Source: Lentisphaerota bacterium (GTDB lineage Bacteria > Verrucomicrobiota > Lentisphaeria > Victivallales > UBA1829). Taken from it: 64,000 bases of DNA. The position numbers and the translations under genes are program-made. A model generated the notes under the pieces. The model saw only the letters and a list, made by a program, of their open reading frames with translations, searched no databases and had not been told where the DNA came from. The stretch lies in contig SUVR01000002.1 of NCBI GenBank assembly GCA_015061915.1, forward strand, positions 60,670 to 124,669. Reading direction: 5' to 3'. Shown piece by piece: positions 10,376-62,924 of the stretch (positions within the stretch are counted from its first letter, which is position 1; the number at the start of each line of letters is the position of its first letter).

Positions 10376-10507
10376 GCGGGACGTCAGACTACCGGAGCAA
10401 GGGGATCCTTGCTCCGGTGCTTTTTCTCCGGTGCGGCGGCAACTGCCGCACCGGAAAAAAAGCGGGCAGCGCAGGTTGCACCTGCGCTGCCCGGTCTGAC
10501 GTCCCGC
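10376..10507. repeat. closed three-hairpin palindromic intergenic element (copy 1), contains terminators
   Basis: Perfect 13-bp outer IR: 10376-10388 GCGGGACGTCAGA with 10495-10507 TCTGACGTCCCGC. It encloses three hairpins at 10391-10418, 10428-10454 and 10463-10493, separated by T5 and A7 tracts. The third hairpin plus the T-run on the minus strand is the terminator of the FrhB-like gene. Confidence 0.85.
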
Positions 10508-13149: not shown

Positions 13150-13176
13150 TCAACAGACTTCCCCGCAGGAACATAA

Positions 13177-13351
13177 GCCCCGCAACGGGGATGCCGCCGC
13201 TTTTGTTTTTTGTGCGCCACAGAGCGCTCAAAAAACAAAAAAACGCCCTGCATTAAAAAAGCGCACCTCCACTGGTGCGCTTTTTTAATGCAGGGCGGGC
13301 GCCGGTCGCGCTTTCAGCGCGAGCGGCTGCGGCATCCCCGTCTTGTGGGGC
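13177..13351. repeat. closed three-hairpin palindromic intergenic element (copy 2), contains bidirectional terminator
   Basis: Imperfect outer stem 13177-13200 with 13323-13351 (12-bp perfect core CGGGGATGCCGC/GCGGCATCCCCG). It encloses hairpins at 13201-13240, 13244-13297 and 13306-13322. The 13244-13297 hairpin has a perfect 24-bp stem whose inner part is A6-GCGCACC...GGTGCGC-T6. Confidence 0.85.
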
Positions 13352-14398
13352 TTACTGTTCCGGACTGACACCGGCACCGAAAGAATCGATGTTCTGCAGG
13401 TACACGCCGGTACCTCTGGCAACCGCCAGAAGGGGGTCTTCCGCCACAAAGCAGTTCAGATTCATTTCCTCGGCAATGAGTTTATCCAGTCCCTTCAGCA
13501 GTGCACCACCGCCGGCAAGGAAAATCCCGTGATCACTCAAGTCGCCGCAGAGTTCCGGCGGACAGCGTTCCAATGTTGTCCGGACAGCCTCCACAATGCT
13601 TGTGACCGGTTCCAGGAGCCAACTGCGCACTTCCCGTGAAGTGATCTTGACCACTTTCGGCAGACCGGAAACAAGGTCGCGTCCTTTGATTTCCATTTCC
13701 GTTTCGCCGTTTTCGTCCGGGTAAACATTACCGATAGTGATCTTGATATCTTCCGCAGTCCGTTCACCGATCATCAGGTTGTAAACCCGCTTTACATTGC
13801 TGATGATCGCAAGGTCCATTTCATCACCGCCGACACGTACGCTGCGGCTGTCCACGATCCCGGCAAGGGAGATAATTGCCACTTCCGTAGTTCCGCCGCC
13901 GATATCCACGATCATGCTGCCGACGGGATCTTCAACAGGCAATCCGATCCCGATCGCAGCAGCCATCGGTTCTTCCAGCAGGATAACTTCACTCGCACCG
14001 GCATGAGTTGCCGTATCCTGCACGGCGCTTGTTTCCACTTCCGTGATCCCGGTGGGAACAGCGATCACGATACGGGGCTTTGCCAGGCGGCGGCGGGGAG
14101 AAACATATTTTTTTGCTTTTTCGATAAAGTAGCGGAGCATATGGCGGGTGATATTGATGTCAGCGATCACCCCGTCTTTCATCGGGCGGATCGCAGCAAT
14201 CGATCCCGGCGTTCTGCCGAGCATCATTTTTGCATCGACCCCGACAGCCAACACGCCGCCGGTGACCTTATTGATCGCCACAACGGAGGGTTCAGAAAGA
14301 ACAACACCTCTGTCCTTCACATATACCAGGCAGTTTGCCGTCCCGAGGTCGATCCCGATGTCGCTGGAAAAAAATCTTGCAAGCTTTTGATGTAACAT
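13352..14398 (-). CDS. mreB: rod shape-determining protein MreB
   Basis: 348 aa. Actin-like ATPase motifs DIGIDLGTANCLVYV and DIGGGTTEVAIISL, with a typical MreB C-terminus. Confidence 0.95.
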   Translation of the reverse strand: MLHQKLARFFSSDIGIDLGTANCLVYVKDRGVVLSEPSVVAINKVTGGVLAVGVDAKMMLGRTPGSIAAIRPMKDGVIADINITRHMLRYFIEKAKKYVSPRRRLAKPRIVIAVPTGITEVETSAVQDTATHAGASEVILLEEPMAAAIGIGLPVEDPVGSMIVDIGGGTTEVAIISLAGIVDSRSVRVGGDEMDLAIISNVKRVYNLMIGERTAEDIKITIGNVYPDENGETEMEIKGRDLVSGLPKVVKITSREVRSWLLEPVTSIVEAVRTTLERCPPELCGDLSDHGIFLAGGGALLKGLDKLIAEEMNLNCFVAEDPLLAVARGTGVYLQNIDSFGAGVSPEQ

Positions 14399-18049: not shown

Positions 18050-18157
18050 ATGGGCAGACAGTACAACAAGTACGAAAAAAGAGCACGCCGTAAACACTAC
18101 CTTCAGCGCGTGAAAGAAAGAATCAAAGAAGCGATCAAGAATGCAAAAAAGAAATAA
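18050..18157 (+). CDS. small highly basic protein (35 aa), hypothetical
   Basis: The ATG at 18050 is preceded by ACAGGAG with 8-nt spacing. Product: MGRQYNKYEKRARRKHYLQRVKERIKEAIKNAKKK. An AT-rich promoter-like region lies upstream. The longer track ORF (start 17966) lacks an RBS. Confidence 0.4.
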   Translation: MGRQYNKYEKRARRKHYLQRVKERIKEAIKNAKKK

Positions 18158-18297
18158 TTGATCTTTTCACAAGCTTCCGGTTGCCGGCAAACGGTAACCG
18201 GCGGCGGTTGTTGTTTGTATGACCGCCGGAACGGGGCGGTTCGGAAGCGGATCGCCCCTTTACTCTTTAAAACAGGACATCATTCAAGGAGCCTGCT

Positions 18298-40679: not shown

Positions 40680-41609
40680 ATGAAAATCGCAGCAGCAACC
40701 GACTACATCGGCAGCACCGGCTGTCCGGAACGCCCCCTCCGTCTCCTCGCTGAAGCAGGATTCACCCATCTTCACTGGTGCCATCAGTGGTGTACCGATT
40801 TTCTCTACAGCCAGCATGAAATCAATGCATACAAGAAAATGCTCAAAAATTTCGGTTTGACCCTGCTGGACATTCACGGCAGTCAGGGGCAGGAGAAATG
40901 CTGGTACTCCGAACTGGAATATCAGCGCAAAGCGGGCGTGGAACTGGTCATCAACCGCATCGAGATGATGACCGAACTGGAAGCCGAAGAAGGCGGCGCT
41001 CTTATGATGCACTTCCCCGTGTTCCATGCGTGGGATAAAGATAACGCCGAAGTTTTGGCGGCAACCCGAAGGAAACTGGATATCTTCAAGCGCACACTGG
41101 ATGATCTTCTGCCGGTCCTCGATATGCACGGAAGAAAGATCGCGCTCGAAAATATGTGGGGCGACAACTGGGATGCCATGGATGAAATTCTTGCCGAATA
41201 TCCGGCACAGTACATCGGGATCTGCTACGACTCCGGTCACGCAAACAGCAAATCCGTCGGCGGCAAGCCCTTCGATATGGGCTACTGCCAAATGGACCGT
41301 CTGGAAAAGCAGAAAGACCGTCTGGAAGCGTTGCATCTGCACGATAACAACGGCGACGGCGACCAGCATCAGCCCCCGTTCTACGGCAATGTGGACTGGG
41401 AACGGCTGGCAAAGATCATCGCCACCAGTAAATCCTACACCCGTCCTGTCAGTTTTGAAATGACCATCAGCAATACGCCGTTCCTGGATAAAGAGCGTCA
41501 GGAAAAAGGTGAACCGCAGACCGATAAAGCCGTTCTCGCATTCCTCAAGGATGCTCACGAACGGTGCGAAAAATTCGGCAGAATGGTCGAAGCGGCGGAG
41601 GCAAAATGA
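40680..41609 (+). CDS. sugar phosphate isomerase/epimerase (xylose isomerase-like TIM barrel)
   Basis: 309 aa. Typical metal-ligand context (IALENMWG, YDSGHAN, LHLHDNNGDGDQHQPP). Confidence 0.7.
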   Translation: MKIAAATDYIGSTGCPERPLRLLAEAGFTHLHWCHQWCTDFLYSQHEINAYKKMLKNFGLTLLDIHGSQGQEKCWYSELEYQRKAGVELVINRIEMMTELEAEEGGALMMHFPVFHAWDKDNAEVLAATRRKLDIFKRTLDDLLPVLDMHGRKIALENMWGDNWDAMDEILAEYPAQYIGICYDSGHANSKSVGGKPFDMGYCQMDRLEKQKDRLEALHLHDNNGDGDQHQPPFYGNVDWERLAKIIATSKSYTRPVSFEMTISNTPFLDKERQEKGEPQTDKAVLAFLKDAHERCEKFGRMVEAAEAK

Positions 41610-43804
41610 ACCGGGTCAGCAACTCCTGGAAACTGGAAGGCTCCACCGTCCTCACGGACAACGGGACCTTCCTGATGGATGGCGCGGGCTCTGCCGTTAC
41701 CACATTGAAACTGGATCAGCCCCAAGCTATGCCCGTCCGGATCAGCTGCGAAAGCCGCGCAGTCGATGCCATCGGAAACAATGCTTACGAATACTCCGTT
41801 CTGGCGAAAGTCGTCTTTACCGACGGAACCACCAACCGTCTGGACTGGACGCCCTTCAATGACGGAACGCTGTTCTATGCGGACTACGCTCCCTTTCTCA
41901 AGGGCAGTCACGACTGGCAGAAACGCAGTTTTCTCCTGATCTACGAAAAACCGATCCGGGATGTGCAGCTGGAAGTGCTGTTCACCCGTCATACCGGCAG
42001 CGCCGAGTTCCGGGATCTGACCGTGGAAGACTTTGCAAAGGATCCGGCGGTTCCGCGCTTCGATACCTTCACCATCGCCGGGGACCTGCCGCAGGGAGCT
42101 TTCCTCCGGGATTGCCGGACCGGCAGTTTCGCAGTGGATGGCGTCCGTATGGAACTGAAGGAGGAAAACGGTACGATCCACGCCCATCTGGAGCTGGGAG
42201 ATCAGGCGGATCGCTGTTTCACATTCTACTGGACGAAAGAGATTGCCGCCGATGCCGTCTCTTTCCTGCCCGCAATGGATGAGGAAACAGAGACTGCAAA
42301 CACGCCCAAAGACTATTTTCAGGTCTGCACCTGGCGGGTCGGGGCAAATGGTCTCGCCTCCAAAGCACCGTTCGCCGCCGTCAGCACGGGCGATGCAGTG
42401 GGGTTCGTTCCCCGGTGTCCGGTCTTCGGACGGGTGGGATACAACTCCATTTTCAAGCGTCTGTATGTGGCGTTCGATGTAGCACTGACCGCCGAACGCC
42501 CGTATGCCGATCTGACTTTTGTTTCTTATCGTTTTGAGCCGGAACACGGCTACCGCAGCGCTCTCTGCACTTATTACGGTCTGTTCCCCGAATTTTACAA
42601 GACGCGGATCCGGGAACAGGGGCTGTGGATGCCGTTCGCCAGTATCAAAAATCTGCCTGATCCGGAAGATTTTCACTTCAAGTTCAAAGAAGGGCACGGG
42701 GTCGGCGACTACGAGTGGGAACTGGAACACGGGATCCATACCTTCGCCTACACCGAACCCATGACCCAATGGATCGATATGCCCGCAGATGTGCCGCGGA
42801 CATACGAAAACGCCAAAATGTGGCGCCGGGAAAAGATCAGTTCCGAACAGGCAAAGGTCATTGATGATTCCGTTATGACCGACGAGACCGGCAAAGAGAT
42901 TATGCTCGCCACCGAACTGCCCTGGTGTCACGGCGTAGTGTGGAGCGTCAACTCCATGCCCGGATACGGCGATATGGAATGGAAACAAAAGACGATTCCC
43001 GCAGGTTTTCACGAATATATCGACAGCGCAGAAGGTTATGTGACGGCAGATATTTCACACCGCCGCGACCACTTTTCACGCTGTCCGCTGGCTCTGACCT
43101 TCAGCGCCGATTCCTTTGTGCCCGGTATCTGGAAGGGATATATCGCTTACGAATACGCCCGGGAACCCCATGACCGGCTCCTGCCCCAGGGCAGATATGT
43201 CATGGCGAACGGCACACCCGGCAGTATGTGGTTCCTGCCCGCAATGCTGGATGTTGCCGGCACCGAAACGGACTGGAACATCGGCGGCAGCTGGAGCCCC
43301 ATGACCGTACAGGAACTGCGGTACCGTCGCGCTGCTTGCGCCGATAAGCCGTACTGCTTCCTCATGAACTCCGACTTTTCAAAATTCACCCACGAAATGG
43401 TGGAAAAATATATGAAACGGTCCCTCGTGTTCGGCATGTTCCCCGGCTTCTTCAGCGCAAACGCCGCCAGCGGTCATTATTTCGCCAATCCCTCCCTCTA
43501 TGAACGGGACAGAGATCTGTTCAAACGGTATCTCCCCTTCATCCAGCAGGCAACCGCCGAAGGCTGGGAACCGGTGACATACGCCAAAGCCGACGATCCG
43601 GCGATCGCACTGGAACGGTACGGCACAAAGTATGTTACCGCCCTGAACGATTCCGGCGAAACAAGAACAGTCCGGCTGACATTCGATGATAAACTGGACG
43701 TCACCGGCTTTACCGATGTGCTGACCGGAAAAACATACCGCAAGGATGAACCCATTACGCTGGATGGCGAAGATGTGGCAATGCTGGAGCTGATCAAGGC
43801 GTAA
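41606..43804 (+). CDS. large cytoplasmic hypothetical protein (732 aa), possibly carbohydrate-active
   Basis: The ATG at 41606 overlaps the upstream stop (ATGA). There is an N-terminal beta-sandwich-like region and no signal peptide. No family recognised. The functional hint comes only from context (TIM-barrel isomerase upstream, cupin convergent). Confidence 0.55.
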   Translation: MNRVSNSWKLEGSTVLTDNGTFLMDGAGSAVTTLKLDQPQAMPVRISCESRAVDAIGNNAYEYSVLAKVVFTDGTTNRLDWTPFNDGTLFYADYAPFLKGSHDWQKRSFLLIYEKPIRDVQLEVLFTRHTGSAEFRDLTVEDFAKDPAVPRFDTFTIAGDLPQGAFLRDCRTGSFAVDGVRMELKEENGTIHAHLELGDQADRCFTFYWTKEIAADAVSFLPAMDEETETANTPKDYFQVCTWRVGANGLASKAPFAAVSTGDAVGFVPRCPVFGRVGYNSIFKRLYVAFDVALTAERPYADLTFVSYRFEPEHGYRSALCTYYGLFPEFYKTRIREQGLWMPFASIKNLPDPEDFHFKFKEGHGVGDYEWELEHGIHTFAYTEPMTQWIDMPADVPRTYENAKMWRREKISSEQAKVIDDSVMTDETGKEIMLATELPWCHGVVWSVNSMPGYGDMEWKQKTIPAGFHEYIDSAEGYVTADISHRRDHFSRCPLALTFSADSFVPGIWKGYIAYEYAREPHDRLLPQGRYVMANGTPGSMWFLPAMLDVAGTETDWNIGGSWSPMTVQELRYRRAACADKPYCFLMNSDFSKFTHEMVEKYMKRSLVFGMFPGFFSANAASGHYFANPSLYERDRDLFKRYLPFIQQATAEGWEPVTYAKADDPAIALERYGTKYVTALNDSGETRTVRLTFDDKLDVTGFTDVLTGKTYRKDEPITLDGEDVAMLELIKA

Positions 43805-43821
43805 GATGTACGCGAAAAATA

Positions 43822-43949
43822 GCGGAACGGCGCAGTCGCCGGAGCAACGCTCCGGCATACCGCCCACAAAAAAAAGCGCAGGCAAAAACGCCTGCGCTTT
43901 TTCTGTGGAGCGGCGGCAGCCCCTGCGGGGCTGGACTGCGCCGTTCCGC
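43822..43949. repeat. closed three-hairpin palindromic intergenic element (copy 3), contains bidirectional terminator
   Basis: Perfect 16-bp outer IR 43822-43837 GCGGAACGGCGCAGTC with 43934-43949 GACTGCGCCGTTCCGC. It encloses hairpins at 43838-43856, 43860-43913 (core A8-GCGCAGGC...GCCTGCGC-T5) and 43917-43933. Confidence 0.85.
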
Positions 43950-43967
43950 GTCGTCTTTTCGACATCC

Positions 43968-44318
43968 TCAATAGCAGGGAATCATAGCAAGCACGACCAG
44001 TGTCTCATCGCCGAGAGCGGCGATGCTGTGACCTTCGCCGCCGCGGGTCACGATACTGTCGCCTGTTTCCAGAATGGACTTCACACCGTTATCGTCCACT
44101 TCTGCTCTGCCGGACACCACAAAAAAGATTTCTTCCTCGTTCTCGTGAACATGATAACCGATCGATGTCCCCGGTTCCAGGATCAGCTTGGAATACATAC
44201 GCACATTGCTGTTCAAGCCATCTCCCTTCTTCCAGATATGTTCCATTTTCACGGTGCCGTTTCCGCCGCGCATAGTGGTGCGTTCTTCCTTTACAAATTC
44301 ATCTTTTCTGCGAATCAT
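43968..44318 (-). CDS. cupin-domain protein
   Basis: 116 aa with cupin_2 motifs GYHVHENEEEIFFVVSG and GEGHSIAALG. AAGGAG RBS. Confidence 0.75.
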   Translation of the reverse strand: MIRRKDEFVKEERTTMRGGNGTVKMEHIWKKGDGLNSNVRMYSKLILEPGTSIGYHVHENEEEIFFVVSGRAEVDDNGVKSILETGDSIVTRGGEGHSIAALGDETLVVLAMIPCY

Positions 44319-50029: not shown

Positions 50030-50171
50030 GTTTTTCCTTCCTTACGGGTTATATTTTTGTTTTGCTATTTTTAATATTATAGATAATATACACCCGTGCG
50101 CGCGACCGCGCAAGCGCGAAAAACATAAGGATGACAAAAAAAATGAAAAAAAATCAGCCGTCCGATACCGC

Positions 50172-50309
50172 GAGGCGCAGCGCAGCCCTTTTTTTTGCTG
50201 CGGCGACAGCGCCGCAGCAAAAAAACGCCTCCGCTTGCAGAACAGATTGCTGTTCTGCAAGCGGAGGCGGCACCGGAGCCAAGCTCCGGTGCGGGCTGCG
50301 CCGCGCCTC
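50172..50309. repeat. closed three-hairpin palindromic intergenic element (copy 4), contains dnaJ terminator
   Basis: 17-bp outer IR (1 mismatch) 50172-50188 GAGGCGCAGCGCAGCCC with 50293-50309 GGGCTGCGCCGCGCCTC. It encloses T8-hairpin-A7 (50189-50225), a perfect 20-bp stem (50226-50269) and GCACCGGAGC-caa-GCTCCGGTGC (50270-50292). Confidence 0.85.
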
Positions 50310-60389: not shown

Positions 60390-62924
60390 ATGGCGATCAT
60401 CGGTAAAATAGAACGGAAAAGCTGGAAAGTGATCCTGTTGAGTGTGGTGATCCACCTGATCCTGATTCTGGGGGCAGCGACTATGGTCTATCCCCTGCTT
60501 CTGATGCTTTCCGGATCAGTCAAAAGTTCCGTCGACTTCAAAAACTTCACCCTCTTTCCTGAATACCTGCTCACAGAAAGCGATGGTCAGGAACTGCTGT
60601 TCAAAAAGTATCTGGCTACAAAGTATAACAACCAAGTTCTGCGTATGGCAGGCGATTTCAAAGATCCCGGTGCCACCTTTGATACCGTCGCGCCTCCATT
60701 CCGGAAAAATCAGGTGCGGCGTACTGCAGACTATCAGGATTTTCTGGCGGAATGTAAAAAAGAACTGCCGCATTACTGGTTCCTGCTCGGAATGGCATAC
60801 GAACCCGGGATAGACCCGCTTTCCCTGCGTAATTTCCGGGCATTTCTGCAAGACGGCCGGACCGATACCAACCGGGCGCTGCGTGAGCTGAACGAGGCGT
60901 GTAATACACAGTTCACCGATTGGAACGAAATCTCACTGCCGGCAGAAAACTTTTTCCTGCGGCGGAATTCCGGAGATTACAGTTCCGGTCTGCTGAAAAG
61001 GCTCCACGAATTCAAGTACAGCAGGCATACAGGATTGCTGGTCGAGATCTGGCCGGATATGGAGGGTGATTTCATTGCAATGCTGCGGCGGGACTGCGGC
61101 AGAAGTCTTGAGTCGATCAATCAATCTCTGCAAACGGATTACAATTCCTGGAAGGAGATCATTCTTCCGGAAAAAGTTCCGGCGGAAAATCCATTGCTTG
61201 CAGCCCGCTGGGAAGAATTTGTCAAAAACGAAATCAACGCTGCCTTTATCACGGTCGAACCCCGTCTTGCACTTGCTCCCTGGCGACACTTCCTGAAGGA
61301 AAAATATGGCGACCTCGCCACACTGAACAAGTCGCACGGCACGCAATATACCGATTGGAACAATATCCCGTTCAGCAACAATGTACCCCAATCCGGGATC
61401 CTGCGGATCGATTGGATGGATTTTGTCAGCGGTAATTCCACGCATAAAAAAATGTGGCATGATTTTCTGAAGAAAAAATATGCGAACCGTATCAGTAATC
61501 TGAACACAGAATGGGGTACGGGATTCCGTACCTTCGGCGAAATACCGTTCCATAATTCCCGAAGCGATAATGAGGCAGAAAACCGGGCAGCCGCAGAACT
61601 GGATGAATTGATCCGCCGCAACCGGAAGAAAGAGATCCCCGCAGAAGCGATCACGCTTCATACGCTGGCGAACCGGTACCGGGCATGGCTGAAAAACCAT
61701 TACTCCGGCAGTCTCGGAGCAGTGGCGAACGCGTACGGCATGGGCTGTAATACATTCCAGGAAGTAACATTGCAGGGAACTGCACCCGGTGAAAATAATC
61801 TGGCAGAACATTCAGACTGGCTGGAATTTCTGCGCACTCTGCCGCCGGAAAAGATCGGACTCCTCCGCAGCGCCGCCGGAAACTACCGGCAATATCTCCG
61901 GGATCTGTACACAAAAGATGGGGTCTGCGATTTTGATGCGATGAGCCGGGATTACGGCAAAACGATCACCGGTGAAAACAACATTCCCATCCACCTGGTC
62001 TGCCCGCCTTCCGGCAAGGCTCGCACCGACTATCTTCATGCGATCCGTAACGATCTCCTTCCCGGTCAATATGTTCTGCCGGATCCGCAAAAATACAGTT
62101 CGGACTGGCATTCTTTTCTGGAGAAAAAGTATGTCAATATCCGGGAACTGAACCGGAAATGGCGTCTCATTCCCCGGACTTTTAACGACTTTTCCCTGCC
62201 GACCCGGGAACACGAATGGCAGCTGTTGCAGGAAAATGCCGCCTTCCTGCGAAATGAATACTTGACCAGGAATTACAAAATGGTCTTCAGTACCCTGTTC
62301 ACCAACGGTAATGCGGCAGTCAATACATTGATCTATTGTCTGCTTTCGGTTCTGGCGGCACTGCTGATCAATCCGCTTTGTGCATACGGACTTTCCCGTT
62401 ACAAACCGGCTTCATCCTATAAGATCCTGCTCTTCCTTATGCTGCCGATGGCGTTTCCTGCCATGGTGCTGGGAATTCCGCAATTTCTGCTGATCCGGGA
62501 TTTGGGACTGCTCAATACCTTCGCCGCCCTGATCCTGCCGGGAATCGCAAACGGATATTCCATCTTTCTGCTCAAGGGATTTTTTGACAGCCTTCCGAAG
62601 GAGTTGTACGAATCCGCCGCCATCGACGGAGCCGGCGAATGGACCGTTTTCTGGCAGATCGGGATGCGCCTTTCCACACCGGTTCTGGCAGTCATTGCAC
62701 TGGGCTCCTTCACCGCCGCTTACGGCAATTTTATGATGGCATTCCTGCTCTGCCAGAAAAAAGATATGTGGACGATGATGGTCTATCTCTACCAACTGCA
62801 GCAGACCTCTTCCCCGGCAGTGGGATTCGCCGCCCTGGCAATCGCCGCGATCCCCACGCTGATCGTGTTCATCTTCTGTCAGAACATCATTATCAAAGGG
62901 ATCGTTGTCCCCACCGAAAAATAA
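60390..62924 (+). CDS. MalG-like ABC permease with ~585-aa repeat-containing extracytoplasmic insertion
   Basis: 844 aa. TM1 at residues about 12-40 (VYPLLLMLSGSVKS). The MalG-type core lies only in the last ~215 aa (ESAAIDGAGEWTVFWQIGMRLSTPV). Residues about 45-630 contain eight copies of an aromatic-x2-aromatic-L...Y...LN...I.(L/F)P module. Confidence 0.8.
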   Translation: MAIIGKIERKSWKVILLSVVIHLILILGAATMVYPLLLMLSGSVKSSVDFKNFTLFPEYLLTESDGQELLFKKYLATKYNNQVLRMAGDFKDPGATFDTVAPPFRKNQVRRTADYQDFLAECKKELPHYWFLLGMAYEPGIDPLSLRNFRAFLQDGRTDTNRALRELNEACNTQFTDWNEISLPAENFFLRRNSGDYSSGLLKRLHEFKYSRHTGLLVEIWPDMEGDFIAMLRRDCGRSLESINQSLQTDYNSWKEIILPEKVPAENPLLAARWEEFVKNEINAAFITVEPRLALAPWRHFLKEKYGDLATLNKSHGTQYTDWNNIPFSNNVPQSGILRIDWMDFVSGNSTHKKMWHDFLKKKYANRISNLNTEWGTGFRTFGEIPFHNSRSDNEAENRAAAELDELIRRNRKKEIPAEAITLHTLANRYRAWLKNHYSGSLGAVANAYGMGCNTFQEVTLQGTAPGENNLAEHSDWLEFLRTLPPEKIGLLRSAAGNYRQYLRDLYTKDGVCDFDAMSRDYGKTITGENNIPIHLVCPPSGKARTDYLHAIRNDLLPGQYVLPDPQKYSSDWHSFLEKKYVNIRELNRKWRLIPRTFNDFSLPTREHEWQLLQENAAFLRNEYLTRNYKMVFSTLFTNGNAAVNTLIYCLLSVLAALLINPLCAYGLSRYKPASSYKILLFLMLPMAFPAMVLGIPQFLLIRDLGLLNTFAALILPGIANGYSIFLLKGFFDSLPKELYESAAIDGAGEWTVFWQIGMRLSTPVLAVIALGSFTAAYGNFMMAFLLCQKKDMWTMMVYLYQLQQTSSPAVGFAALAIAAIPTLIVFIFCQNIIIKGIVVPTEK

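Follow-up and report, generated by a model that had tools for sequence, protein, structure and literature searches.

The element at positions 43822–43949 of the window (the whole 64,000-nucleotide stretch of contig SUVR01000002.1 that was analyzed) is a cloverleaf-like bundle of three hairpins, 128 bases in all, which is closed by a perfect outer stem and lies where two genes converge in an uncultured Lentisphaeria bacterium of the gut. On balance, we favor reading it as a selected, elaborated bidirectional intrinsic terminator combined with an mRNA 3′-end module, and as a member of a lineage-specific class belonging to one gut Lentisphaeria group; this reading is built on sequence comparison and predicted folds. 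The window holds four such elements, numbered copies 1–4 by position, and the element under study is copy 3. The analysis covered these 64 kb of the host genome together with short orthologous loci, which are designated by L numbers.

Structure of the closed three-hairpin element

The two outer arms, GCGGAACGGCGCAGTC (43822–43837) and GACTGCGCCGTTCCGC (43934–43949), are complementary at 16 of 16 positions. Enclosed between them are hairpin 1 (43838–43856; GCCGGAGC-aac-GCTCCGGC), which is a CCGGAGC hairpin module also present in copies 1 and 4, an extended central hairpin 2 (43860–43913), and hairpin 3 (43917–43933; CAGCCCC-tgc-GGGGCTG). The core of hairpin 2 (43868–43902) has the shape of an intrinsic terminator on both strands; it consists of A8 (43868–75), GCGCAGGC (43876–83), the loop aaaaac, GCCTGCGC (43890–97), and T5 (43898–902), and is extended by pairing of CCGCCCAC with TGTGG-a-GCGG. 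None of these features, nor the flanks or the other elements described below, is assigned to a strand. Each of the arms and hairpins had been described in the original prediction, made from the letters alone, and each is present at the coordinates given there.

The closed architecture put forward in that prediction was also recovered by folding, as the predicted minimum free energy structure of either strand is exactly the closed three-hairpin structure. RNA folding gave −101.9 kcal/mol for the + strand (z −9.3 versus shuffles) and −107.5 kcal/mol for the − strand (z −11.4), and folding with DNA parameters gave −65.6 kcal/mol (z −12.6). The 64-kb window contains two perfect inverted repeats that reach 14 bp or more at a spacer of 60–200 nucleotides (nt), compared with 0.02 in dinucleotide shuffles, and a chance origin of the copy 3 inverted repeat is excluded. 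Such repeats are thus well above the frequency expected from composition and related copies exist, the two points on which the original prediction had staked its case. Outward from the arms, the inverted repeat continues in degenerate form, with GATGT..CG..AAAA on both sides when the 17-nt left flank (43805–43821; GATGTACGCGAAAAATA) is compared with the reverse complement of the 18-nt right flank (43950–43967; GTCGTCTTTTCGACATCC), which runs up to the cupin stop codon.

Conservation of the helices

Orthologous copy 3 elements were found in independent assemblies: an identical one in L001, variants in L002, L004, and L095–L098, and a partial one in L005. The stems are almost invariant, and the loops change freely. 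In the outer stem, 15 of the 16 pairs are the same in all orthologues, and the remaining pair has changed from A-T to G-C on both sides. The stem of hairpin 3 is invariant around loops reading tgc, tac, tgtc, or tcc; the loop of hairpin 1 reads aac, aaa, or atgc, and that of hairpin 2 aaaaac, acttct, attctc, or gttttt. The 17–18 nt between the arms and the stop codons are unalignable between species (window versus L095/L098) and have been wholly replaced, with no conservation of the left flank. An assembly artefact was rejected as an explanation, as the same element with evolutionary variants is present in independent JGI, ENA, and Logan assemblies. A metagenome scan with GyrA returned only six loci (66–86% identity) with synteny insufficient to add orthologues.

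For comparison of rates, paired and unpaired columns were counted separately. Between the window and L095, paired columns of copy 3 differ at 2.8% and unpaired columns at 39% (Fisher p 6e-6); against L002, the values are 4.7 and 48% (p 1.4e-6). The same pattern was seen for copy 4 against L095 (12.9 and 84%; p 6.5e-10) and for copy 1 against L201 (9.2 and 79%; p 4.8e-8). Four-fold degenerate sites of the neighboring genes differ by 24–38% between the window and L095 and by 41–47% between the window and L201, so that the helices, the outer one included, have evolved 3–10 times slower than synonymous sites. This slower rate indicates purifying selection on all four helices.

Covariation points the same way. 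RNAalifold placed 54 pairs in copy 3, three of which are changed on both sides: the outer-stem pair 13/118 (A-U to G-C) and, in hairpin 2, A-U/C-G and A-U/G-C/U-G. In a shuffle control, this covariation was not significant by itself, given 4 or 5 distinct sequences from few lineages, and the rate comparison is the stronger test of selection. Double compensatory changes number at least four in copy 4, whose outer stem also has a paired C/G insertion.

A fold this stable and conserved, with four helices in a cloverleaf-like arrangement, could also belong to an independent structured RNA gene, encoding a small RNA, a ribozyme, or a molecule like tRNA. The variation among orthologues makes this extremely unlikely, because all of it falls in loops and junctions and there is no conserved unpaired core. 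Moreover, Rfam gave 0 matches at gathering thresholds over the whole window, relaxed thresholds (E up to 5) gave only generic hairpin matches far below gathering scores, and ARAGORN found no tRNA or tmRNA. With 17–18 nt to the stop codon on either side, there is also no room for a promoter of its own.

Termination signals and proposed function

The original prediction had called the core of hairpin 2 a bidirectional terminator. On the − strand, the terminator scan flagged a stem at 43893–43874 followed by T8; on the + strand, a stem followed by the tail TTTTTCT was read directly from the sequence. The terminator-like character of the core is thereby confirmed. An A8-stem-T5 arrangement, as in a bidirectional terminator, lies between the convergent 732-amino acid (aa) and cupin genes. 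Inside each of the other elements as well, a hairpin with a T-run points the way that the flanking genes demand; such signals were seen in copies 1 and 2, and in copy 4 a T7 run comes after hairpin B. A hairpin of the form T-run...A-run provides the U-tract for the neighboring hairpin in copies 1 and 4. The orientation of these signals, taken with the plain terminators found at the same sites in relatives (see below), therefore makes bidirectional termination with a stable 3′ structure the best-supported function, and termination and RNA protection would be the functions under selection.

In the proposed mechanism, the central hairpin (A8, an 8-bp GC stem, and T5) would stop RNA polymerase arriving from either converging gene. 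The terminated transcript of the 732-aa gene would then end in the stacked GC hairpins 1 and 2, and that of the cupin operon in hairpins 3 and 2; such stacked 3′-terminal hairpins should block 3′-to-5′ exonucleases. In read-through RNA or in single-stranded DNA, the 16-bp arms could pair and draw the three hairpins together, giving a four-way junction in which all is paired and which would isolate the module from neighboring sequence and present a second, very stable barrier. We infer that the closing stem acts on read-through RNA, where it might provide a fail-safe barrier, mark a processing site, or insulate folding. It might instead act in DNA, as a hairpin or a junction, or the arms might supply the same motif to both converging transcripts.

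Several observations weigh against a terminator and 3′-end module as the full account. A transcript that stops at the central T-run lacks the second outer arm. The conserved closing stem can therefore play no part in the main terminated product, although its arms rank with the most conserved stretches of the element. A need for the same 16-nt motif in both converging transcripts would also explain conserved arms. The stems are almost purely Watson–Crick, and selection at the RNA level is not separated from selection at the DNA level. Ordinary single-hairpin terminators occur in the same window, so that termination does not depend on the elaborate form, and a terminator model does not predict a constant three inner hairpins in five independent loci. 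In a tentative, minority reading, the elements would be an undescribed extragenic class of self-contained four-way-junction modules, each with one outer stem and exactly three hairpins, that arise de novo at gene ends through inverted duplication of local sequence and replace ordinary terminators. The CCGGAGC hairpin would then be the recognition site for a dedicated protein (a nuclease, an RNA-binding, or a junction-binding protein), and the whole a distinct 3′-end system.

The closing stem bears equally on the proposal that the element works as DNA, with an extruded four-way junction offering a site to a junction-recognizing protein (a nucleoid protein, gyrase, a recombinase, or a resolvase). 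The fold is equally strong with DNA parameters, Watson–Crick symmetry is strict on both strands, there are always three inner hairpins joined by linkers of 0–3 nt into a fully paired four-way junction, and conservation extends to the closing stem, of which terminated RNAs would have a single arm. In a test for strand asymmetry of G·U pairs, intended to tell RNA-level from DNA-level selection, the counts were small and balanced between strands. Selection for a DNA structure is nonetheless very unlikely to be the explanation. Placement at gene 3′ ends with oriented hairpin/T-run signals in every element would be needless for a pure DNA site, simple terminators stand at the same positions in relatives, and no candidate partner gene lies beside any copy. 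Cruciform extrusion would also be disfavored between converging genes, where positive supercoils accumulate.

A class of closed elements

When the 64-kb window was folded in sliding segments of 160 nt (mean −44.9 kcal/mol, S.D. 9.9), the four elements scored −109 to −126 kcal/mol and the next best place −73.5 kcal/mol, making them the sole extreme folding outliers of the window. All four combine a long outer stem with exactly three inner hairpins, the linkers of 0–3 nt again giving a fully paired four-way junction. Copy 1 (10376–10507) has a perfect 14-bp outer stem around its three hairpins and lies between co-directional − strand genes, an FrhB-like gene and then a 213-aa gene. Copy 2 (13169–13360; core 13185–13341) lies between convergent 4HBT thioesterase and MreB genes. 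Copy 4 (50173–50309) has a 17-bp outer stem with one G·T/A·C position, likewise with three hairpins, and separates the co-directional − strand genes dnaJ and gyrA. A fifth closed three-hairpin element, unrelated to these, was found between a cupin gene and recO in a more distant relative (L103:10361–10520; cupin 76% identical). This element follows directly after the cupin gene; an A-run and a T-run border its 31-bp outer stem, which in this case is itself the predicted terminator. All five elements directly follow stop codons at the ends of transcription units.

In a structural search of 1.6 Mb from 107 sources, closed multi-branch elements were confined to the copy-bearing group plus the one in L103, and no two-branch or four-branch closed elements were detected. 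Nothing comparable was present in other Lentisphaeria/Victivallaceae loci (190 kb) or in other phyla (∼1.2 Mb). One further inverted repeat in the window (62647–62760; 18 bp, 89%, 78-nt spacer) was rejected as a candidate, being in coding sequence and with a z of −0.5 versus shuffles.

Relatedness of the copies

The original prediction had spoken of copies and had suggested a distant common ancestry. As members of a repeat family, the elements do not qualify, because overall sequence identity among the four is negligible and no overall alignment can be made; what they have in common is a set of modules. Direct homology was considered and rejected, as local alignments (z 2–7.6 versus mononucleotide shuffles) were driven by A/T runs beside GC stems. 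The hint of common ancestry is nonetheless supported, and more by the CCGGAGC hairpin than by the outer arms. CCGGAGC-N(3–12)-GCTCCGG occurs three times in the window where 0.02 would be expected, inside copies 1, 3, and 4 and nowhere else, each time adjoining the outer stem, and among 203 loci it is confined to elements of this group. The resemblance of the arm start to that of copy 1 was borne out, the pair GCGGRACG...CGTYCCGC at a spacing of 95–125 nt being found at copies 1 and 3 only (expected 0.01). Copies 1 and 3 also have the stem AGCGCAGG in common, and 7- and 8-mers are shared above structure-preserving shuffles for most copy pairs (p 0.001 to 0.05). The GGCGCAG shared with copy 4, by contrast with these modules, is too short to carry weight alone. 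The shared modules support one of two readings, a distant common ancestor or a sequence requirement that the copies have in common, and they do not show recent copying.

Other uses of the shared motifs were examined and set aside. A role for CCGGAGC like that of a DNA uptake sequence was rejected, since enrichment of the 7-mer in the window is only ∼2-fold and the k-mer spectrum is not dominated by any long motif. Across all loci of the group, the 16-nt arm was found solely at the orthologous site; the viral contigs containing it gave 94 single chance matches. The three of these contigs with a second GCGGRACG/CGTYCCGC half (L141, L147, and L166) proved to contain one coding-like sequence, with nested hairpins absent. 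In copy 1, the loop and stem top of the CCGGAGC hairpin make a GGATCC palindrome (10403–10406 and flanks), and GCWGC motifs (GCAGC/GCTGC) appear to be plentiful in the elements.

Gain, loss, and replacement at orthologous sites

Copy 3 is absent from two syntenic relatives of different genera. Between the same two stop codons lie 9 bp in L094 (732-aa homologue 50% identical) and 4 bp in L101 (cupin 84% identical). At the copy 4 site, the dnaJ–gyrA spacer of L094 holds a plain hairpin plus T-run terminator. Copy 1 is conserved in the sister species L201/L203. In the same sister species (L201–L203, ∼85% nucleotide identity to the window), the copy 2 site after mreB is occupied by an unrelated 105-bp spacer with a plain terminator (L201:4427–4531), and in L199, of the same species as the window strain and 98% identical to it in nucleotides, by a third unrelated sequence of 209 bp (L199:6048–6256). 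The 4HBT thioesterase–mreB spacer (window 13150–13351) thus exists as three unrelated alleles swapped exactly from stop codon to stop codon, and the flanking coding DNA is 98–100% identical within the species. Copies 1, 3, and 4 therefore predate the split of the sampled species, and copy 2 is a strain-level polymorphism.

Presence and absence of this kind would be natural for a non-autonomous mobile element resembling the MITEs (miniature inverted-repeat transposable elements) or the repetitive extragenic palindromes (REP) and bacterial interspersed mosaic elements (BIME), with the arms as terminal inverted repeats, the CCGGAGC hairpin as the site of a transposase encoded elsewhere, and a preference for insertion at gene ends. 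Copy 3 is a discrete unit bordered by perfect inverted repeats (16/16), as expected of a MITE, and was gained as a block relative to the 4–9 bp at its site in syntenic relatives; copy 2 varies in its presence between strains at 98% identity; the hairpin module and a similar arm start are common to copies; and REP locations likewise differ between E. coli strains (bioRxiv 10.64898/2026.03.23.713779). We regard mobility as unlikely all the same. No two elements can be aligned overall, and no near-identical paralogue was seen in the ∼64 kb of genome and few loci searched, with the 16-nt arm limited to its orthologous site. There is no target-site duplication, the flanks (...AAAAATA| and |GTCGTCT) having no direct repeat and being weakly inverted instead. 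The alternatives at the copy 2 site are unrelated sequences of 105–209 bp and not an empty site, and one copy 2 arm holds the stop codon and last codons of the host gene, which is unexpected for a pre-formed insert. Finally, copies 1, 3, and 4 are fixed at the same loci across species with a 24–47% difference at synonymous sites.

Origin of the elements

In copy 2, the extended outer stem takes in the MreB stop codon and the last two codons of the gene, and the opposite arm is an inverted copy of this gene end (GGAACA-TAAGCCCC versus GGAACAGTAAGCCCC; also GGAACAGTAA versus GGAACA-TAA). In L004, the hairpin 2 loop gttttt (L004:5296–5301) is the exact reverse complement of aaaaac in the window (43884–43889), a difference that has the form of a hairpin-mediated micro-inversion. 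Perfect stems, multi-base compensatory changes, and inversions of this sort are known products of template switching (PMC8794818). The inverted MreB end in copy 2 and the loop inversion in L004 point to local template switching during replication, and we infer that inverted duplication of local sequence, and not transposition, builds up the elements in place.

If template switching builds the elements, it might also be all that maintains them. Terminator hairpins would then be template-switching hotspots at which nested inverted repeats are created and repaired as a non-adaptive by-product, with only the inner terminator hairpins functional. The exact loop inversion, the MreB-derived arm, the near absence of G·U pairs, the equal stability on both strands, and the ability of a single switch to yield perfect stems together with multi-base compensatory changes (PMC8794818) all agree with this. 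Unbiased copying from arm to arm should, however, let pairs change at about the neutral rate. Instead, the 15 of 16 unchanged pairs in the copy 3 outer stem stand against 24–38% change at four-fold sites, all stems are 3–10 times slower, and the sequence just beyond the arms was entirely replaced over the same distance. Together with the lack of such elements in other Lentisphaeria and in ∼1.2 Mb of other bacteria, this makes a pure by-product quite improbable, and a selected terminator and 3′-end module remains the preferred reading.

Gene setting and side observations

The convergent setting named in the original prediction was confirmed. Upstream, on the + strand, the open reading frame list gives the gene for the 732-aa protein at 41606–43804, with its TAA stop codon at 43802–43804; downstream, on the − strand, the gene for a 116-aa Cupin_2 protein (43968–44318) is the last in a folP-cdaA-cdaR-cupin run. 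Copy 3 starts 17 nt past the stop codon of the former and 18 nt past that of the latter. A Pfam search with the 732-aa protein matched no family; in L001, its gene is likewise called with a length of 732 aa. More than 700 homologues at ∼40% identity occur across Planctomycetota and Lentisphaerota, a widespread, uncharacterized family of the PVC group. Judging by the flanking proteins, the host is an uncultured Lentisphaeria bacterium of animal gut, and the closest species-level genome match is a metagenome-assembled genome from water-deer caecum (CdaA 79% identical).

In L004, the cupin DNA is 98% identical to the window and the element nearly identical, whereas the adjoining 732-aa gene is 78% identical in DNA and 77% in protein, placing copy 3 at an apparent recombination boundary. 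Elsewhere in the window, a small, very basic 35-aa open reading frame (18050–18157, + strand) is followed, within 18050–18260, by three tandem GC hairpins of 10–11 bp without a closing stem; this open cluster may be a precursor state. On the − strand at 50073–50095, ∼60–90 nt upstream of gyrA, GGTGTATATTA resembles an extended −10 promoter element. It is kept in every Lentisphaeria relative compared (L086, L089, L090, L094, L095, L098, and L101), even with a different upstream gene.

Comparison with known systems

Hairpin clusters act as termination units (PMC8355165, PMC3013805), and the U-, V-, and X-shaped classes of WebGeSTer, with other hairpin-cluster and bidirectional terminators, resemble the present elements in having adjacent GC-rich hairpins within ∼80 nt of a stop codon and, between converging genes, A-run/T-run flanks for termination on both strands. 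Terminator stems evolve through compensatory switches (PMC5381666), and the stems here are likewise maintained by compensatory evolution. Described clusters, however, are open strings whose frequency drops exponentially with hairpin number (PMC8355165), whereas the elements here always have three hairpins locked by a long-range helix of 14–31 bp, their stems are unusually long and perfect, and part of the structure lies past the termination point. Copy 3 and its relatives thus fit with hairpin-cluster terminators but are closed into a four-way junction, a form that is in no catalogue.

REP and BIME (REPIN) sequences of Enterobacteria and Pseudomonas are also extragenic palindromes at 3′ ends or between converging genes, mosaic, modular, and variable in location between strains. 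REP325 of E. coli has been shown to be a terminator and mRNA stabilizer (bioRxiv 10.64898/2026.03.23.713779), roles that match those predicted here by analogy. REPs, however, come in hundreds of near-identical copies with a ∼35-nt consensus and are linked to RAYT transposases, whereas the present elements share only a hairpin stem of 7–10 bp and a short arm motif, with no near-identical paralogues in the sequence searched, and are not known to have a transposase.

Correia, ERIC, and MITE-like palindromes are intergenic units of 100–150 bp with terminal inverted repeats. As RNA, such units form long hairpins with an effect on how transcripts are processed. Their sequence is conserved, they come with target-site duplications, and each has a single hairpin that is long and imperfect; the elements here have neither duplication nor family consensus, and their fold is branched and perfectly paired. 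Integron attC sites are similar in combining variable sequence with conserved structure, in size (57–141 bp), and in lying downstream of open reading frames, and long attC sites can have branched tips. Unlike attC sites, however, copy 3 has no R″/R′ core (RYYYAAC / GTTRRRY), its arm reading GTTCCGC, no unpaired spacer, and no extrahelical bases, the outer stem being perfectly paired. No integrase or cassette array is nearby, the neighbors being housekeeping genes (gyrA, dnaJ, mreB, and cdaA).

Hairpins produced by template switching (PMC8794818) have in common with these elements the reverse-complement copies of adjacent sequence, the multi-base compensatory changes, and the loop inversion. 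That work, however, concerns a mutational mechanism acting on single RNA-gene stems and not nested, closed intergenic elements.

Implications

Seven independent metagenome contigs or scaffolds break or are gapped inside or at the edge of these elements (ends of L003, L005, L098, L099, L100, and L200; a run of N at ∼1705–1715 in L202). Nested inverted repeats break short-read assemblies, and the elements are therefore under-represented in draft genomes, a loss that may explain the lack of an earlier description.

If the favored reading is correct, some bacteria build terminators beyond the hairpin-plus-U-tract model, as locked four-way junctions under strong selection. The closing helix would lie outside the main terminated transcript, which would raise the question of the part played at gene ends by read-through RNA or by DNA that forms hairpins. 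The loci compared here, with no spacer, a plain terminator, three open hairpins, or a closed element, would form a natural series for the way in which structured non-coding DNA arises by template switching and is then selected.

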